Below are positions 6,538 through 62,441 of a stretch of DNA of 64,000 nt, piece after piece. Made by a program: the position numbers and the translations under genes. Positions within the stretch are counted from its first letter, which is position 1. Each line of letters starts with the position of its first letter. The stretch comes from Escherichia virus TH43. The DNA lies in sequence record MT446414.1. One strand, 5' to 3'. Below the pieces are notes generated by a model. That model saw only the letters and a list, made by a program, of their open reading frames with translations. It was not told where the DNA came from and did not search any database.

Positions 6538-8385
6538 GTGATGGATAACCCTGATAAGTTACCTTTCATAACGGAGATGACAGTCGCTGATATAATCTCA
6601 AAGCAGGCGAAGCATGGCGTCAACTTCCACAGAAGAAACGCTCGGTGGTTTGTTCACCTTCTCAAAGAGATTATTGTCAATATTGATAAAGAACTGATTC
6701 CTCTCCTCCCCAAAATGCGGGTGGATGGTTCAACTTATTCGAAACCTTTTAAGAAGTCAGGTGCTTTACAGAAGTGGCCTCAGCTCTATTGTGACAGAGT
6801 TGGTCTTAAAAGAGAAGATATCGGTGGGGCGTTTACTTGCGTTGAGTATGTAGACTTCGACCCATCGAAAGATGCACGTATCAAAGAAGCCTTGATGGAC
6901 GAAGGCTTTATTCCTCCAGAGTGGAACACATCCAAGAAACCTTGGAATACTTACGAAATCCGTAAAGCGATGAAGAAGTATGGCACATATGCTGCTTGGT
7001 ATTCTGCTTGGATGCGGGGAAACGCTAAAGAAAAACAGACAGCTGAGATGATTGACGCTGACATTCGTCGGTTCTTGGATAAACACTTCCGTTATCACAC
7101 TGTCAATTACATGAAAGCGTACGTTAGTGGTTTAGGTTTGAATCCGAACAGGAAGAAGCCTGTAACCTTTGATGAAATTAAGAAAGCTTTAGCCATGTCA
7201 AACAAGTGGCCTACAGCTCCTACAAACCTCGAGGAGACGCTTGAAGAAGGTCTTGGGGGTGAGCTAGGGGGTGTGGGAGGTTTGCTTAAGAGACGTGTTG
7301 TAGCGGCTCACAGGCTTGGCTTGATTAATGGTCTTATAGACAAGGAACGAGAAGATGGTAAGTTGTCCGCCGAAGCTAATAGCTGCGCTACTCCGACATT
7401 TCGTTTTAAACACCGTATTGTTGTTAATATTCCTTCTCGCGGTTTGTTTGGTCACGAGTGCCGCAGTCTATTTCAGTCTGACTGTACCTCAAGTGATAGT
7501 AATCACAATCCTATCATCATTACCAACCATATCCCTGATGGGTGTTACGTACGAAAAGGTACAAACACTATCTACGAAGTGGGAAAACCGGGCAAGAAAG
7601 ACAAACCGATAGGTGCTCTGAAATATTACATACCTTCTGGTCATGAAGTATTTCTTGGTTATGATGGTTCAGGGTTAGAACTGCGTATGCTGGCTCACTA
7701 CCTTATTAAAGAGTGTCGTGAGATGTTGGCAGAGGCAGAACAAGAGAATAACCCAGCTAAGAAACGAGAAGCTGAACGCGGTTTAGCATCTGCCGTATTG
7801 TACAGAGATATTCTCTTACAGGGTGATATTCACTCCCATAACCAGAAACTTGCTGGCTTGCCTACCCGTGATAATGCTAAGACGTTTATCTACGCATTCA
7901 ACTACGGAGCTGGTGATGCTAAGCTAGGTAGTATTGTTGGTGGTGGGGCTGATGAAGGTTCTATAATGAGAGCTAGATTCTTAGCAGAGAACCCTTGTAT
8001 TGCAATCCTTATTGAACGTATGACAGAGAAAGCACAAAGTGGATACATCTACGGTGTTGACGGTCGTCGTATTACAATGAGACGTGACGGTACAGGAAAG
8101 GTCATGACACACAAAGCCTTAAATACGCTCTTACAGAGCGCTGGGGCGATTGTTATGAAGTATGCAATGCTATTCCTCAATAAATGGATTGAGCGTGATG
8201 GTGTTCGTTGTGCGAAGGTTATCGACATGCATGATGAAGGCCAGTTCACTGTACATCGTGAAGATGTTAACAAACTTCGTACTCTCACTGAAGAGTGTGT
8301 TCGTAAAGCGGGTGAATACCTCAAGATGGAATGTCCTCTTGCATCAGATTGTAAGATTGGGCTTAACTGGAATCATACTCACTAA
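6538..8385 (+). CDS. DNA polymerase, family A (Pol I-like)
   Basis: motif A DGSGLELRMLAH, motif B RDNAKTFIYAFNYGAG, motif C MHDE; RBS AGGAG. Confidence 0.85.
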   Translation: MMDNPDKLPFITEMTVADIISKQAKHGVNFHRRNARWFVHLLKEIIVNIDKELIPLLPKMRVDGSTYSKPFKKSGALQKWPQLYCDRVGLKREDIGGAFTCVEYVDFDPSKDARIKEALMDEGFIPPEWNTSKKPWNTYEIRKAMKKYGTYAAWYSAWMRGNAKEKQTAEMIDADIRRFLDKHFRYHTVNYMKAYVSGLGLNPNRKKPVTFDEIKKALAMSNKWPTAPTNLEETLEEGLGGELGGVGGLLKRRVVAAHRLGLINGLIDKEREDGKLSAEANSCATPTFRFKHRIVVNIPSRGLFGHECRSLFQSDCTSSDSNHNPIIITNHIPDGCYVRKGTNTIYEVGKPGKKDKPIGALKYYIPSGHEVFLGYDGSGLELRMLAHYLIKECREMLAEAEQENNPAKKREAERGLASAVLYRDILLQGDIHSHNQKLAGLPTRDNAKTFIYAFNYGAGDAKLGSIVGGGADEGSIMRARFLAENPCIAILIERMTEKAQSGYIYGVDGRRITMRRDGTGKVMTHKALNTLLQSAGAIVMKYAMLFLNKWIERDGVRCAKVIDMHDEGQFTVHREDVNKLRTLTEECVRKAGEYLKMECPLASDCKIGLNWNHTH

Positions 8386-55675: not shown

Positions 55676-55835
55676 GTTCACCACTGGTCACACTGTTCGC
55701 CTTGTTGGCGGTACTCAAACAGGTGTTATTCGTCGGAGAACAACGATTGATGGTGTTCTCTGTTATCTTGTTCAGTGGAATGGTGAATCCTCTCCTTCCT
55801 TCGAACGTCGTACTGATTTGGTGTTAATCAAATGA
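55644..55835 (+). CDS. small basic beta-rich protein
   Basis: ORF track 55473..55835; internal ATG. Confidence 0.4.
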   Translation: MRKQRMRSRVKFTTGHTVRLVGGTQTGVIRRRTTIDGVLCYLVQWNGESSPSFERRTDLVLIK

Positions 55836-56062
55836 AAATTAATCTCCCATCTTTAGTTGTTACTAAAAAGCTCAGCGATCTACGTCCGGGTGATGTATTC
55901 CGTCTACCAACTAACTCTGAACACCTCTATCTAAAGACAGACACCTGCCTGAATGATATGCATCGTGTGGTTGGTCTTCGTCAGGGAACACTATTCCAGT
56001 TACAGGAACATCATGAAGTTATCCCTGTATTTGATGTTCAAGTGACTAATATTGGTGGTTAA
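55832..56062 (+). CDS. small protein, PGDxF paralog family
   Basis: LSDLRPGDVFRL motif. Confidence 0.5.
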   Translation: MKINLPSLVVTKKLSDLRPGDVFRLPTNSEHLYLKTDTCLNDMHRVVGLRQGTLFQLQEHHEVIPVFDVQVTNIGG

Positions 56063-56287
56063 ATGAAGATTGACATTGATAGTACGCCAGAGGTTGTAAC
56101 TCTCGGAGACCTAAATCCGGGTGAAGTCTTCCAGTTTAACTACAATGAAACTCAATACTACATGCGTACTGCGTGTTATGGTGAAAACAAAAGTTATTTT
56201 GTTAACCTTTATACAGGTAAGCGTGATTCTGAGTGTAAATCGACTGTAGTCAGACCTGTACCTAACGCACAACTAACCAACAAGTAA
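56063..56287 (+). CDS. small protein, PGDxF paralog family
   Basis: LGDLNPGEVFQF motif. Confidence 0.5.
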   Translation: MKIDIDSTPEVVTLGDLNPGEVFQFNYNETQYYMRTACYGENKSYFVNLYTGKRDSECKSTVVRPVPNAQLTNK

Positions 56288-56296
56288 CATCGACTT

Positions 56297-56324
56297 ATAG
56301 CCCTTGTGCTTATCAGAGGGCTAT
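56297..56324 (+). repeat. conserved hairpin ATAGCCCT-N12-AGGGCTAT (copy 1 of 2)
   Basis: near-identical copy at 62206..62233. Confidence 0.6.
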
Positions 56325-56589
56325 GTGAGGATGTTCCTCAATTAACTATAATCTCAATGCCATATGGCTCACCGCTAGGGCGAGACTTGTCTCAAACATC
56401 CGGTGATAGACTAAAACCTGTTAATTTTCGAATGGCATTCCGATATGTAGGGGTATGTATCGGTTTGGGATAGAGAACAATCTAGGGGTAGAAAGTTCTC
56501 GACAGTTTGTACAAGCGGAAGCCTTAACGTGTAGGGCTTCCCTTTATATTAACTGGCAATCCTGCCTCCATTAACAAAGAGAGAACGTT

Positions 56590-57222: not shown

Positions 57223-57474
57223 GTGTTCAATCGTTTATTTGACCGTAAAGGTCGCACTGACATACTGATACCTTCTATCGGTGTGCCAGCTAAGTTCGGT
57301 GAGATACGTGCTGGTGACTTCTTCATGGAATCAGGTCGTCTTCATCTGAAGATCAACCTCGATCACGCTGTTGAAATCCTCAGTGATGATAAGCCAATCA
57401 TCGGCACTTCGGTGTACAGTGCAAACCATACTGTATTTGTTGTCAATGTTCAGATTGAGATTAAATCACCATGA
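57223..57474 (+). CDS. small protein, PGDxF paralog family (GTG start)
   Basis: FGEIRAGDFFM motif. Confidence 0.45.
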   Translation: MFNRLFDRKGRTDILIPSIGVPAKFGEIRAGDFFMESGRLHLKINLDHAVEILSDDKPIIGTSVYSANHTVFVVNVQIEIKSP

Positions 57475-57728
57475 AGACAAACTTCCGAGCAGCAGTTATT
57501 ACGAAAGTAATAGCAGTTGGCGATGTAATGATGCAGGTTCCTCTGAACACTCGTTACATTGCCATTGACCGAATGGGTTATGTGTGGGCTTGGAAGTGGA
57601 AGCCTACTTATAACGAACTGTTCGACGAATACCAGTGCGCTGGACCTTACATGCCAACCTTAATCGGTGTGTATGAAGATGGTCCTTGTCGTACTCCTCA
57701 GTTAATCGAACTACCGGCGTGTGCTTAA
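57471..57728 (+). CDS. hypothetical protein
   Basis: ORF track. Confidence 0.45.
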   Translation: MKTNFRAAVITKVIAVGDVMMQVPLNTRYIAIDRMGYVWAWKWKPTYNELFDEYQCAGPYMPTLIGVYEDGPCRTPQLIELPACA

Positions 57729-57729
57729 T

Positions 57730-57891
57730 ATGATTAAGTGGCTAAAGCGTGTCTTCCATTGTCATGATTGGAAGATTATTAACACCCGTCCTCTGGTCTA
57801 TACAGATTCAGATGGGAACAATGACAAGGGCACACGTTACGTTATTCAGTGTAAGGTGTGTGGTGATGTTAGTCATCGTGATGTAATCTAA
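57730..57891 (+). CDS. small zinc-ribbon protein, tandem paralog A (53 aa)
   Basis: manual translation MIKWLKRVFHCHDW...CKVCG. Confidence 0.4.
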   Translation: MIKWLKRVFHCHDWKIINTRPLVYTDSDGNNDKGTRYVIQCKVCGDVSHRDVI

Positions 57892-57900
57892 GGAATCATT

Positions 57901-58065
57901 ATGATTAAATGGTTCAAACGTCTATTTCATTTCCATGAGTGGGAAGATCTTTCTACTTATGAACTGACGATCACAAATAAACTTACTGACAGAGAGCGAC
58001 AAGGGTTGCGTATCTACTCTCGCTGTAAAGTGTGTGGTCTGCACAAGAAAACAGACCTGATTTAA
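57901..58065 (+). CDS. small zinc-ribbon protein, tandem paralog B (54 aa)
   Basis: manual translation MIKWFKRLFHFHEW...CKVCG. Confidence 0.4.
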   Translation: MIKWFKRLFHFHEWEDLSTYELTITNKLTDRERQGLRIYSRCKVCGLHKKTDLI

Positions 58066-58317: not shown

Positions 58318-58740
58318 TTGAAGATAGAGTTAGAATACCCCTTCGTTAATGACTGGCGATTGGGCTACTTAAGAACAAGCAGAGACGGTAGGAAGCGTGT
58401 TGATTTGTATAATACCGACACGGAGAGGACAACCATTTCTTACGCAAGATATTTAATGTCTTGTCACATAGGCAGGTACCTAACTGAAGACGAGGAGGTT
58501 GATCATATTGACAGAAATAAAACTAATGATGACATATCTAATCTTCAGATACTTTCCATAGAAAATCACAGAAAGAAGTCAACATTAGAAGCAACTACTG
58601 GAAGAACAATGATTTCAGTTGTTTGCTCTTATTGTGGAAGATCTTTTGAAAAAGAAAAGCGAAATGTTAAATATGCAAATTCTTTTTGTAACAGATCATG
58701 TGCAGGTAAGTATAACGGTTTCAAATCTATCGGGGCGTAG
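58318..58740 (+). CDS. HNH homing-endonuclease-like protein
   Basis: EEVDHIDRNKTNDDISNLQILSIENHRKK HNH motif. Confidence 0.55.
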   Translation: MKIELEYPFVNDWRLGYLRTSRDGRKRVDLYNTDTERTTISYARYLMSCHIGRYLTEDEEVDHIDRNKTNDDISNLQILSIENHRKKSTLEATTGRTMISVVCSYCGRSFEKEKRNVKYANSFCNRSCAGKYNGFKSIGA

Positions 58741-58806
58741 TCTAGTGGAACAGGCAGCGAGCTTCTAACTCGCCTTACGAGGGTTCGAATCCTTCCGTCC
58801 CGACCA
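58731..58806 (+). tRNA. tRNA-Arg (anticodon TCT)
   Basis: hand-folded 76 nt cloverleaf: 7 bp acceptor, D-loop with GG, anticodon loop CTTCTAA, T-loop TTCGAAT, encoded CCA. Confidence 0.8.
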
Positions 58807-60305: not shown

Positions 60306-60560
60306 ATGAAAGTTAACATGCCAGCAGGTAAAAATTCAATACCCCTCAGTGCTTTGCGACTTGGGGATTGCTTCATGTACCCTAACAGTGAAGATGGTGA
60401 TTTGTACATCTTACTGTCTACCGAGTTCTCAACTCGCTTGTGCATTAAGGGTGCGGACGAGCACAGACTTGTAGCCTGTCTTAACACAGGCCGAGCGACA
60501 GCGCCTCGTAAAGATGTTGCTGTTATTCCTATTAAAGCTGAAGCAATTATTAAGGAATAA
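60306..60560 (+). CDS. small protein, PGDxF paralog family
   Basis: LSALRLGDCFMY motif. Confidence 0.5.
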   Translation: MKVNMPAGKNSIPLSALRLGDCFMYPNSEDGDLYILLSTEFSTRLCIKGADEHRLVACLNTGRATAPRKDVAVIPIKAEAIIKE

Positions 60561-60563
60561 GCA

Positions 60564-60830
60564 ATGACAGTTCTTACTATCAATAAGACTCGTGTTGCAG
60601 ATATCCCTCTGACTGTTCAGGGGATTCTTCCCGGCTCTTTCTTTACCCTTAAAGAAGATAAAGAACAAACCCTTTACATGAAGGTAAACAAAAGCTCTAA
60701 CGGTTCTGAATACTCTCGAGCCGTGTCTATGCAGAGTGGGTACGTTCGTAATATGGCACCTAATATGCCAGTTGGTGTTGTATTTGAATCAGCAACTCTG
60801 GATTTAGTGGAGAAGGTTAGTGAAACGTAA
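60564..60830 (+). CDS. small protein, PGDxF paralog family (divergent)
   Basis: GILPGSFFTL motif. Confidence 0.45.
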   Translation: MTVLTINKTRVADIPLTVQGILPGSFFTLKEDKEQTLYMKVNKSSNGSEYSRAVSMQSGYVRNMAPNMPVGVVFESATLDLVEKVSET

Positions 60831-61092: not shown

Positions 61093-61273
61093 GAAAACGT
61101 GCCTACTCTGAAGAAGAAATGGTTAACCTGAAAGGCTTTGGTCAGCGACAGCCTGATGGCTCAGTTATCTGGTACATTAACGGACAGAAAAAGGCAAGTA
61201 AATAAGCCCTCTTCTCTCCTCCCTTTAGCTACTATGACGCCTCTCTTTTCGGCGCTGTTTTGGAGCTTCAAAA

Positions 61274-61687
61274 ATGGCTGGGAAACTCCCCAACGTAAGC
61301 AAGAAATTGGCCTACCTCACGTATAAAGAAAACATTGATCTTCTGGTCAAGCTTTATCCGGCTTCATTCAACAAGCAATTCCCTCTTCCTTTGGAGCTTA
61401 ACATCCATAAGGAAATAGCCCGTAAGACCGGTTGGTCAGCGGAGAAAACAAGCATGGTGCTCAACATCTGGACTACTCGTATGGAGTATGTGATGATGGC
61501 CTGTAGCACTGGTAAACGCTTCAAGCTGCACTCTGTAGCTATGAAGATTCGTAGTCCTATTGACCCTGAGCCAATGGCTGGGTTCAGCAGCCGTCTGAAA
61601 TCTTTCCGTGATCGTGGTCGTGTAGTGAAGTTTAAGCACGACTTCTCTTATAAGTTTGGATACGAAGCGTTCCAATTCGTTGTTTAA
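61274..61687 (+). CDS. ProQ/FinO-domain RNA-binding protein candidate
   Basis: LVKLYPASF...PLPLELNIHKEIARKTGWSAEKTSMVLNIWTTRMEY...GKRFKLH resembles the ProQ N-terminal domain (recalled). Confidence 0.5.
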   Translation: MAGKLPNVSKKLAYLTYKENIDLLVKLYPASFNKQFPLPLELNIHKEIARKTGWSAEKTSMVLNIWTTRMEYVMMACSTGKRFKLHSVAMKIRSPIDPEPMAGFSSRLKSFRDRGRVVKFKHDFSYKFGYEAFQFVV

Positions 61688-61715
61688 TCTCTCTTTAATA
61701 TAAGGTAATAGAAAC

Positions 61716-61949
61716 ATGTCTAAAGTTAGCGCAATTGATGCCATCCGCCAGCCGTTCCAGTTCCAGTCCAAATCAACCCAAACCTTCAGCGAACCTCGCC
61801 AGATTCGTCTGGGCGGCACAGAGAAATCTGTGTTTGATATTGCGAAAAATAAAAGCGTGACCATCGTCGAAGGTGGTGAGCTGGTTAATGTTTCCCATCG
61901 TATCCGCACTGGTAAAACTGCCAAAGATCGTGCTAAGAAAGGTCTGTAA
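61716..61949 (+). CDS. hypothetical protein
   Basis: ORF track. Confidence 0.45.
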   Translation: MSKVSAIDAIRQPFQFQSKSTQTFSEPRQIRLGGTEKSVFDIAKNKSVTIVEGGELVNVSHRIRTGKTAKDRAKKGL

Positions 61950-62200
61950 TGCAAATTGCTAATAAAACCCCTCCTGAATCAATTATCCAAGTAAAGGATA
62001 TGTCACCGGGAGATGTATTTCGTGCAACGGAATATCCGGGGGATTTCTTTATTCGAATCCCCTCAGCATCTGTTGGTGGTATCGCTAAACCGGTAACAGC
62101 AGTTCAGCTAAGTACGGGTCATCTCTTCCGTTTAGAGATTGATATGATTGTGATTCCTGTTCCAACAGCAATCCTCCGCTTCGACGGAGCCACAGAGTAA
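61949..62200 (+). CDS. small protein, PGDxF paralog family
   Basis: KDMSPGDVFRA motif. Confidence 0.5.
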   Translation: MQIANKTPPESIIQVKDMSPGDVFRATEYPGDFFIRIPSASVGGIAKPVTAVQLSTGHLFRLEIDMIVIPVPTAILRFDGATE

Positions 62201-62205
62201 CATCT

Positions 62206-62233
62206 ATAGCCCTTGTGAGTATCAGAGGGCTAT
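62206..62233 (+). repeat. conserved hairpin ATAGCCCT-N12-AGGGCTAT (copy 2 of 2)
   Basis: near-identical to 56297..56324. Confidence 0.6.
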
Positions 62234-62441
62234 GTGAGCTATTCTGGCTCAACTAACCTAAACTTAATTTAATCTTACCCGTATGGGGCCGATGCTAGGG
62301 AGAGGAACAGTCCTCGAACATCCGTCGGATAGAATATTTTAAGAGCAGGTTATCCACAGATATTGGGTGATATCTATTTAATTGGCCTTAAAGCTTGGCT
62401 CTCTTAGGAGAGTCCTTTTTTAAGTTCAAAGAAGAGGTTGT

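Follow-up and report, generated by a model that had tools for sequence, protein, structure and literature searches.

The window, a stretch of 64,000 nt from Escherichia virus TH43 (MT446414.1), is that of a phiEco32-like podophage, and the 3 kb around the gene studied here share 98% identity with Escherichia phage StefiGeyer_Bas88, 95% with ECBP2 and 91% with SU7, with further partial matches to about 100 phiEco32-like podophages (Gordonclarkvirinae). Between 54 and 64 kb every gene is short, densely packed and encoded on the + strand; the equivalent region of SU10 (CDS 69-125) has been classed as early, with sigma70 promoters reported at its far end only (PMC4281155). Here we describe a gene of this region encoding a small ProQ/FinO-domain protein, together with two copies of a structured RNA element (Table 1). 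The gene is established by a good Shine-Dalgarno sequence and closely spaced neighbours on the same strand, and its translation contains the three ProQ-like blocks to which a preliminary description of this DNA had drawn attention (aa 24-32, 37-72 and 80-86). No function could be assigned to any of the 10 neighbouring ORFs examined.

Table 1. Coordinates of the FinO-domain gene and of the two RNA element copies in the window.
Feature	Position	Strand	Details
Gene for a 137-aa single-domain ProQ/FinO-fold protein	61274-61687	+	ATG start; pI 10.0
Shine-Dalgarno sequence GGAG	61262-61265	+	8 nt 5' of the ATG; read directly from the sequence
Spacer 5' of the FinO-domain gene	61206-61273	+	Insertion junction near 61250 (alignment with relatives)
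Copy A, structured core	56291-56416	+	Alignment, folding, covariance model
Copy A, hairpins	H1 56297-56324; H2 56327-56339; H3 56359-56368; H4 56369-56406
Copy A, H4 internal loop			CUAGGGC / AAACAUC
Copy A, 3' part	56417-56552	+	Two hairpins with UAGGGGUA loops, ~56440-56463 and ~56473-56500
Copy A, terminator-like hairpin	56517-56541	+
Copy B, structured core	62200-62338	+	Alignment, folding, covariance model
Copy B, hairpins	H1 62206-62233; H2 62235-62251; H3 62278-62287; H4 62289-62328
Copy B, H4 internal loop	62295-62301 / 62316-62322		CUAGGGA / GAACAUC
Copy B, 3' part	62339-62422	+	3' end of the gene block that holds the FinO-domain gene
Copy B, closing helix, 3' strand	62350-62358		Position is that of TTATCCACA, which the strand includes
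Copy B, hairpin of the 3' part	62360-62379
Copy B, intrinsic terminator	62397-62414	+	A-rich tract 5', U-tract 3'

The preliminary description had put the protein forward as a candidate member of the ProQ/FinO family, and this was borne out by every test performed, namely Pfam, profile searches, hhalign and the predicted fold. As a single sequence the protein matches PF04352 (E 4.1e-6) at 27.2 bits against a gathering score of 27.0, and since this lies barely above the cut-off, by 0.2 bits, the match taken alone is thin evidence. A first homologue search returned the protein's own cluster only; relatives were brought out by an exhaustive HMMER search of 1.84 billion representatives, which yielded 45, of which 39 were aligned. 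All 39 match PF04352, with a best E of 1.7e-20. Searching the PDB sequences with the single protein (phmmer) gave no match, and members of known structure were found by the 39-homologue profile alone: the N-terminal domain (NTD) of E. coli ProQ (5nb9; 1.2e-15), RocC (1.6e-12), FinO (5.4e-11), NMB1681 (6e-7) and a Legionella ProQ homologue, with nothing else of note beyond FinO-domain entries. Alignment to the ProQ NTD by hhalign reached a probability of 98.6% at 17% identity.

An AF2 model built from the 39-homologue alignment (pLDDT 92.6, pTM 0.85) consists of a FinO domain with one extra C-terminal helix. The top 26 Foldseek matches of this model in the PDB are all FinO-domain chains with a probability of 1.00, and the first match after these has an E of at least 1.8. 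A BFVD search ranks the SU7 orthologue first and, after it, proteins from Salmonella phage 7-11 and Aeromonas phage 4_4572, all three of which are named 'ProQ/FinO domain-containing protein'. Pfam finds only the N-terminal ProQ/FinO domain in the 137-aa protein; the linker and the Tudor-like C-terminal domain of full-length ProQ are absent, and we therefore regard it as a 'minimal' FinO-domain protein like NMB1681. Membership of the ProQ/FinO family is thus confirmed.

This family call is correct, yet already public. The SU7 protein (UniProt A0A8F3C9D8), a 98%-identical orthologue, already bears the ProQ/FinO label, as does UniProt G0X555 of Salmonella phage 7-11, and GenBank homologues from Erwinia, Hafnia, Aeromonas and Salmonella phages with 28-35% identity are called 'proQ: RNA chaperone' or similar, the former being the label in Erwinia phages Pistou, Panisse and Rouille. 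Such phage labels in the databases are automatic or made by similarity, and in the GenBank records of close relatives the gene product is still a 'hypothetical protein'. A 2023 review notes that the ProQ/FinO family occurs on phages (PMC9977716), and we found no experimental study of, or binding data on, any phage FinO-domain protein in the literature. For the protein, our analysis adds little beyond automatic annotation.

We then considered the residues with which FinO domains contact RNA, mapped from the profile/PDB and hhalign alignments and counted for conservation in the 39 relatives. In the RocC-RNA crystal structure the 3'-terminal nucleotide sits in a pocket formed by Tyr87, Arg97 and a beta-turn containing Gly52, and the helix N-cap (Ser70, Lys71, Ser72, Lys73 and Arg75) reads the stem phosphates; an R75D substitution lowers RNA binding more than 100-fold (PMC9674577). 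Tyr72 and Arg82 of the phage protein, equivalent to RocC Tyr87 and Arg97 and to ProQ Y70 and R80, are each invariant (39/39) and lie 10 residues apart, as in RocC and ProQ; invariance in all relatives points to selection on the 3'-end pocket. The N-cap serine (RocC Ser70, ProQ S53) is Ser55, with S, T or D at this position in 32 of the 39. Other contacts have changed. RocC Arg75 (ProQ R58), a position that is about 80% Arg across the ProQ/FinO family (PMC9674577), is Ser60 here, with S in 12/39 and R in 6/39 relatives; the near-universal turn glycine (RocC Gly52, ProQ G37) is Asn43, although Gly is kept in 35/39; and ProQ R32, K35, K54 and R62 correspond to L38, E41, A56 and N64. With the Arg, the Gly and further basic contacts altered, affinity or specificity may differ from that of the known members. 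The sub-family has marks of its own, namely Trp66 and Arg69 (both 39/39), a near-invariant Glu71, a small beta-hairpin insertion and the extra C-terminal helix.

Among the characterised proteins, NMB1681, the minimal ProQ of Neisseria meningitidis (PDB 3mw6), is likewise basic and consists of a FinO domain on its own, about 140 aa long including short extensions, and matches the phage protein by structure and profile at roughly 19-24% identity; it differs in being a chromosomal, global RNA binder with known ligands, and the phage protein, for its part, is missing the conserved Arg that follows the N-cap and has an additional conserved C-terminal helix. The best structural match is Legionella RocC bound to the RocR terminator (PDB 7rgu; E 4e-4, target-normalised TM 0.65-0.71). 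The two proteins share the Tyr/Arg 3'-nucleotide pocket and the N-cap Ser at the same spacing, but R75, K71 and G52 of RocC are Ser60, Ala56 and Asn43 in the phage, and RocC serves a single dedicated sRNA and carries a long C-terminal region. The ProQ NTD (5nb9), the best profile match, shares the pocket residues as well, whereas ProQ carries a linker and a Tudor-like domain, and its R32, K35, K54, R58 and R62 are not kept. Plasmid FinO (FinP/traJ) and FopA (Inc/repZ) are also FinO-domain proteins of mobile elements (PMC9977716). These act on a defined cis-antisense RNA pair, in contrast to the phage gene, where there is only a predicted terminator-like hairpin with a T-run on the minus strand (61277-61294), antisense to the Shine-Dalgarno sequence and start codon. 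This hairpin pairs better on the minus strand (G.U), and a weak promoter-like site (61697-61724, - strand) lies about 400 nt upstream of it on that strand; an antisense RNA over the start of the gene is possible.

The gene is an accessory one. By tblastn, near-identical copies occur in about 21 records, all of the SU7/ECBP2/Bas88 type, which amounts to about one fifth of the related genomes, and no copy was found in phiEco32, SU10 or other Kuravirus/Nieuwekanaalvirus genomes. When all ORFs of seven Kuravirus early-region loci were searched with the family profile (hmmsearch), no diverged FinO-like gene came to light. phiEco32 and its relatives carry homologues of the two flanking genes (phi32_94 and phi32_93) with a spacer of 106 nt between them, and this spacer agrees in its left part with the sequence upstream of our gene; the gene is therefore an insertion into the early region between these two homologues in the SU7/ECBP2/Bas88-like branch. 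A CU-rich tract (61207-61229, CCCTCTTCTCTCCTCCCTTTAGC) follows the phi32_94 homologue and is kept in relatives without the FinO-domain gene; beyond this tract, the spacer of Kuravirus genomes contains a hairpin whose loop reads UAGGGAA. In four other phage backgrounds the FinO-domain gene adjoins genes for ribose-phosphate pyrophosphokinase and nicotinamide phosphoribosyltransferase, which belong to NAD salvage (L004:2949-7198, L023:205-1518, L024:10001-13197 and L063:17201-20462); these are absent near the gene in the window.

We turn to the RNA elements. The two near-identical hairpins pointed out in the preliminary description are real, with 94% identity over 34 nt (56296-56329 and 62205-62238). 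The sequences following them are also related, as had been claimed, at about 70% column identity with gaps and far beyond chance, but the spans given for the two units (56297-56420 and 62206-62345) proved too short, each unit extending to an intrinsic terminator. Each copy starts at the stop codon of the gene before it, and the terminator lies 60-130 nt after the structured part. Scanned with a covariance model derived from related phages, the 64-kb window yields precisely these two sites, which score 130 and 126 bits (E ~1e-29 to 1e-30), the next-best score being 13.7 bits.

When the two copies were aligned with those of phiEco32, SU10 and Salmonella phages 7-11 and pSal-SNUABM-01, the element emerged as an RNA of about 135 nt with four hairpins, an invariant internal loop and strong compensatory changes. 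H1 has the stem AUAGCC..GGCUAU; H2 has GAGN..N'CUC, in which N-N' is C-G, U-A or G-C; the H3 stem varies between GCC/GGC, CCC/GGG and GGC/GCC; and H4 is a two-part stem around an unchanging 7x7 internal loop, CUAGGG(A/C) / (G/A)AACAUC. H1, H3 and H4 are predicted independently by RNAalifold. Across 22 sequences, 99.8% of the cells pair and 8 of 21 base pairs show double changes, against only 30-44% pairing when the 3' partners are slid by 1-3 columns. A divergent copy (L031:3023-3146, 65 bits) differs in the sequence of all four stems and has an identical internal loop; with it included, 100% of cells pair and double changes occur in 11/21 pairs. Many G.U pairs work on the + strand only, indicating that it is the sense transcript that folds. 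A closing helix makes a three-way junction around H3 and H4 in the B-type copies, the 7-11-type copies and that of L031; it reads UAACCU/AGGUUA in the B-type, and A-type copies form it with different letters. The outer positions of the internal loop co-vary in a non-Watson-Crick manner (A..G to C..A).

By the covariance model, each sampled Gordonclarkvirinae early region holds two copies, apart from EcoN5 with three, and 7-11-like phages have one apiece. The three in EcoN5 arise from a tandem duplication of two genes together with element B (L018:6030-6716 and 7548-8234). Wider pattern scans of IMG/VR, genomes and metagenomes gave the same phage groups, chance matches within ORFs (L007) and the single divergent copy in L031, a metagenomic phage contig binned as a Flavobacterium MAG that carries many small ORFs ending in EEENE or DEENE (L031:1978-5668). 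A search of the window at the Rfam 15 gathering score found a tRNA only, and at E <= 10 there were weak matches to the terminator part of the elements only. The element is thus a real structured RNA that is new to Rfam.

Several smaller features accompany the elements. UAGGG occurs four times in copy A (56376, 56448, 56483 and 56532), twice as UAGGGGUA and always in predicted loops, and TAGGG is under-represented in the window as a whole (31 against about 50 expected); the cluster could be a protein or ribosome-like binding motif. Two CDS of Bas88, Bas88_0103 and Bas88_0102, are annotated across element A (L002:2988-3256) and are probably not real genes. Both elements start at the TAA of a gene belonging to a set of paralogues, encoding proteins of about 75-88 aa that share a (P/K)GD(V/I)F motif (55832-56062, 56063-56287, 57223-57474 and 61949-62200, with further members at 60306-60560 and 60564-60830), and the AGTAAC junction is near-invariant across phages.

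Do the protein and the RNA elements belong together? The preliminary description had proposed the hairpins as plausible cognate ligands of the protein, with which they would form one regulatory module. A role as dedicated chaperone of both RNAs, in the manner of FinO/FinP or RocC/RocR, would fit the position of the elements, which share early region and strand with the gene, element B being the 3' end of the gene's own block, as well as the terminator hairpins at the end of both copies, of which that of B has a ProQ-type A-tract and U-tract. It would also fit Salmonella phages 7-11, SE131 and pSal-SNUABM-01, which carry a FinO-domain gene and one copy of the element about 5.4 kb apart, 7-11-like phages sharing ancestry with the phiEco32 group. 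The distribution of the two, however, does not support one module, the element being far commoner than the gene: by blastn, 104 phage records contain copy B and 98 contain copy A, against about 21 for the gene. In seven sampled relatives (phiEco32, SU10, Bas93, EcoN5, Paul, EP335 and MN05) both RNA copies are present but the early region is free of FinO-like ORFs, and the elements and terminators are essentially as in the gene carriers. Conversely, the element is absent within 10-20 kb of the FinO-domain genes of Erwinia phage phiEa21-4 and of the P0002/P0003 contigs, which carry the nearest non-Gordonclark homologues of the protein. Moreover, the conserved part of the RNA is the internal loop rather than the terminator base that FinO domains read. 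Protein and RNA are thus not co-inherited as a FinO/FinP-type pair would be; from its presence in around 100 genomes mostly without the gene, and its absence near the FinO-domain genes of other phages, we conclude that the element predates the protein and is independent of it. They probably do not constitute a dedicated pair, and we regard a chaperone devoted to these RNAs as unlikely.

The elements are candidate, non-dedicated ligands of the protein, because they end in FinO-type terminators and B forms the 3' end of the gene's own block. Below the stem of the B terminator a pyrimidine mismatch precedes A-U pairing, as seen in many ProQ ligands (PMC12001967), a feature that is common to many terminators. 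Pairing of the G-rich invariant loop with the CU-rich tract was considered and rejected: its energy is similar to that of dinucleotide shuffles (z 0.2 to -0.9), and the tract is kept in gene-less phages and diverged in EP335. We give little credence to a scenario in which the four-hairpin element would be a new class of phage cis-regulatory RNA governing passage or stability at the two early-region terminators, and in which the phage's own FinO-domain protein, in the SU7/Bas88-like branch and in 7-11-like Salmonella phages, would have been recruited to these terminator 3' ends to tune the switch; if true, this would be the first phage-encoded FinO-type protein-RNA circuit.

Our preferred reading, which we hold to be probable, is that the protein works as a minimal FinO-type factor binding the 3' ends of terminators and that the RNA elements are independent of it. 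We infer RNA binding, ligand choice and physiological effect from the conserved pocket and from the behaviour of the studied family members. Like RocC, FinO, ProQ and NMB1681, the protein would clamp the base of Rho-independent terminator hairpins, with the 3'-OH nucleotide of the U-tail buried in the Tyr72/Arg82 pocket and the Ser55 helix N-cap contacting the stem phosphates. Bound transcripts would be shielded from 3' exonucleases or polyadenylation, or RNA pairing would be helped. Likely substrates would be early transcripts of the phage, among them the 3' end of the block to which the gene itself belongs, and perhaps ligands of host ProQ; the protein would most likely protect phage transcripts or compete with host ProQ.

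Two other readings of the protein were weighed against this one. It might act chiefly on the host as a ProQ mimic, competing for the 3' ends of host sRNAs and mRNAs, such as ProQ-dependent toxin-antitoxin or stress transcripts, and so aid takeover or counter-defence. The shared fold and 3'-end pocket would allow this, an early, accessory and patchily distributed gene is typical of host-interaction genes, and ProQ is known to bind many transcripts of mobile elements and toxin-antitoxin loci (PMC9977716, review). We nevertheless consider it unlikely, given that the host retains its own ProQ and that the basic residues of the helix are lost (equivalents of K54, R58 and R62), which argues against an identical ligand range. 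In the other reading, the fold has been kept but 3'-end RNA binding has been lost or changed in favour of another role, for example binding of protein or another nucleic acid. Ser60 in place of an Arg conserved at about 80%, Asn43 in place of a near-universal Gly and the absence of further basic contacts would be expected from it, as would the sub-family-specific invariants (W66, R69 and E71) and the additional C-terminal helix. Asn can, though, take a Gly-like turn geometry. Since none of the 39 relatives departs from the two residues most diagnostic of the pocket, which implies selection on it, and the protein is strongly basic, we think a change of function improbable.

As for the elements themselves, we tentatively propose that they are cis-acting signals of the early transcripts, for nut/put-like antitermination or for mRNA processing or stability, and that their partners are host factors or a phage protein distinct from the FinO-domain one; this is our best guess, at odds that fall clearly short of even, and follows from their site just before terminators after which no promoter is predicted. 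Two copies are present, both on the sense strand and each between the stop of a gene block and its terminator. Downstream of the terminators promoters are neither annotated nor predicted, promoter prediction here being unreliable, and the early sigma70 promoters reported for SU10 lie elsewhere, at the far end of the region (PMC4281155). The strongly conserved structure, whose invariant internal loop would suit the binding of a factor, and the G.U pairs that mark the transcribed strand as the functional one, are also consistent with such signals. Lambda nut and HK022 put similarly comprise two related structured-RNA copies in early transcripts, upstream of terminators; our elements differ from these in having no sequence or Rfam similarity to them and in forming four hairpins and a three-way junction. 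On the other side, boxA/boxB-like sequences and an Rfam match are absent from the elements, and a stable 3'UTR-derived sRNA or a protein sponge would fit equally well.

Two further roles were discarded. The elements do not mark a replication origin: there is a perfect DnaA box, TTATCCACA, in copy B, the sole one in the window, but one 9-mer in 64 kb is not significant, sites with one mismatch occur 21 times against 18.6 expected, and A-type copies have no box. This DnaA-like sequence is kept in B-type copies and in 7-11, and is probably the 3' strand of the closing helix rather than a DnaA site. Nor do the elements contain a promoter of their own, as a TATAAT in copy A is not kept in the Kuravirus copies and a sigma70 scan yielded fewer hits than in shuffled sequences.

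Among bacterial RNA regulators, FinO-domain proteins form a major class, and the altered contact residues of the phage protein could show how a FinO domain sets its ligand choice. Knock-outs and CLIP are feasible, as the gene is small and early and the phage is 98% identical to an isolate of the BASEL collection, Bas88. The RNA element may matter more than the protein, as a lead on how early transcription is organised in phiEco32-like phages. Elsewhere in the same part of the window, tandem paralogues of about 55 aa (57721-57891 and 57901-58065) start with MIKW(L/F)KR..H.H(D/E)W and have a C-terminal CKVCG motif, features that make them likely small zinc-binding proteins, and an HNH endonuclease ORF (58318-58740) overlaps the start of tRNA-Arg(TCT) (58731-58806) by 10 nt.
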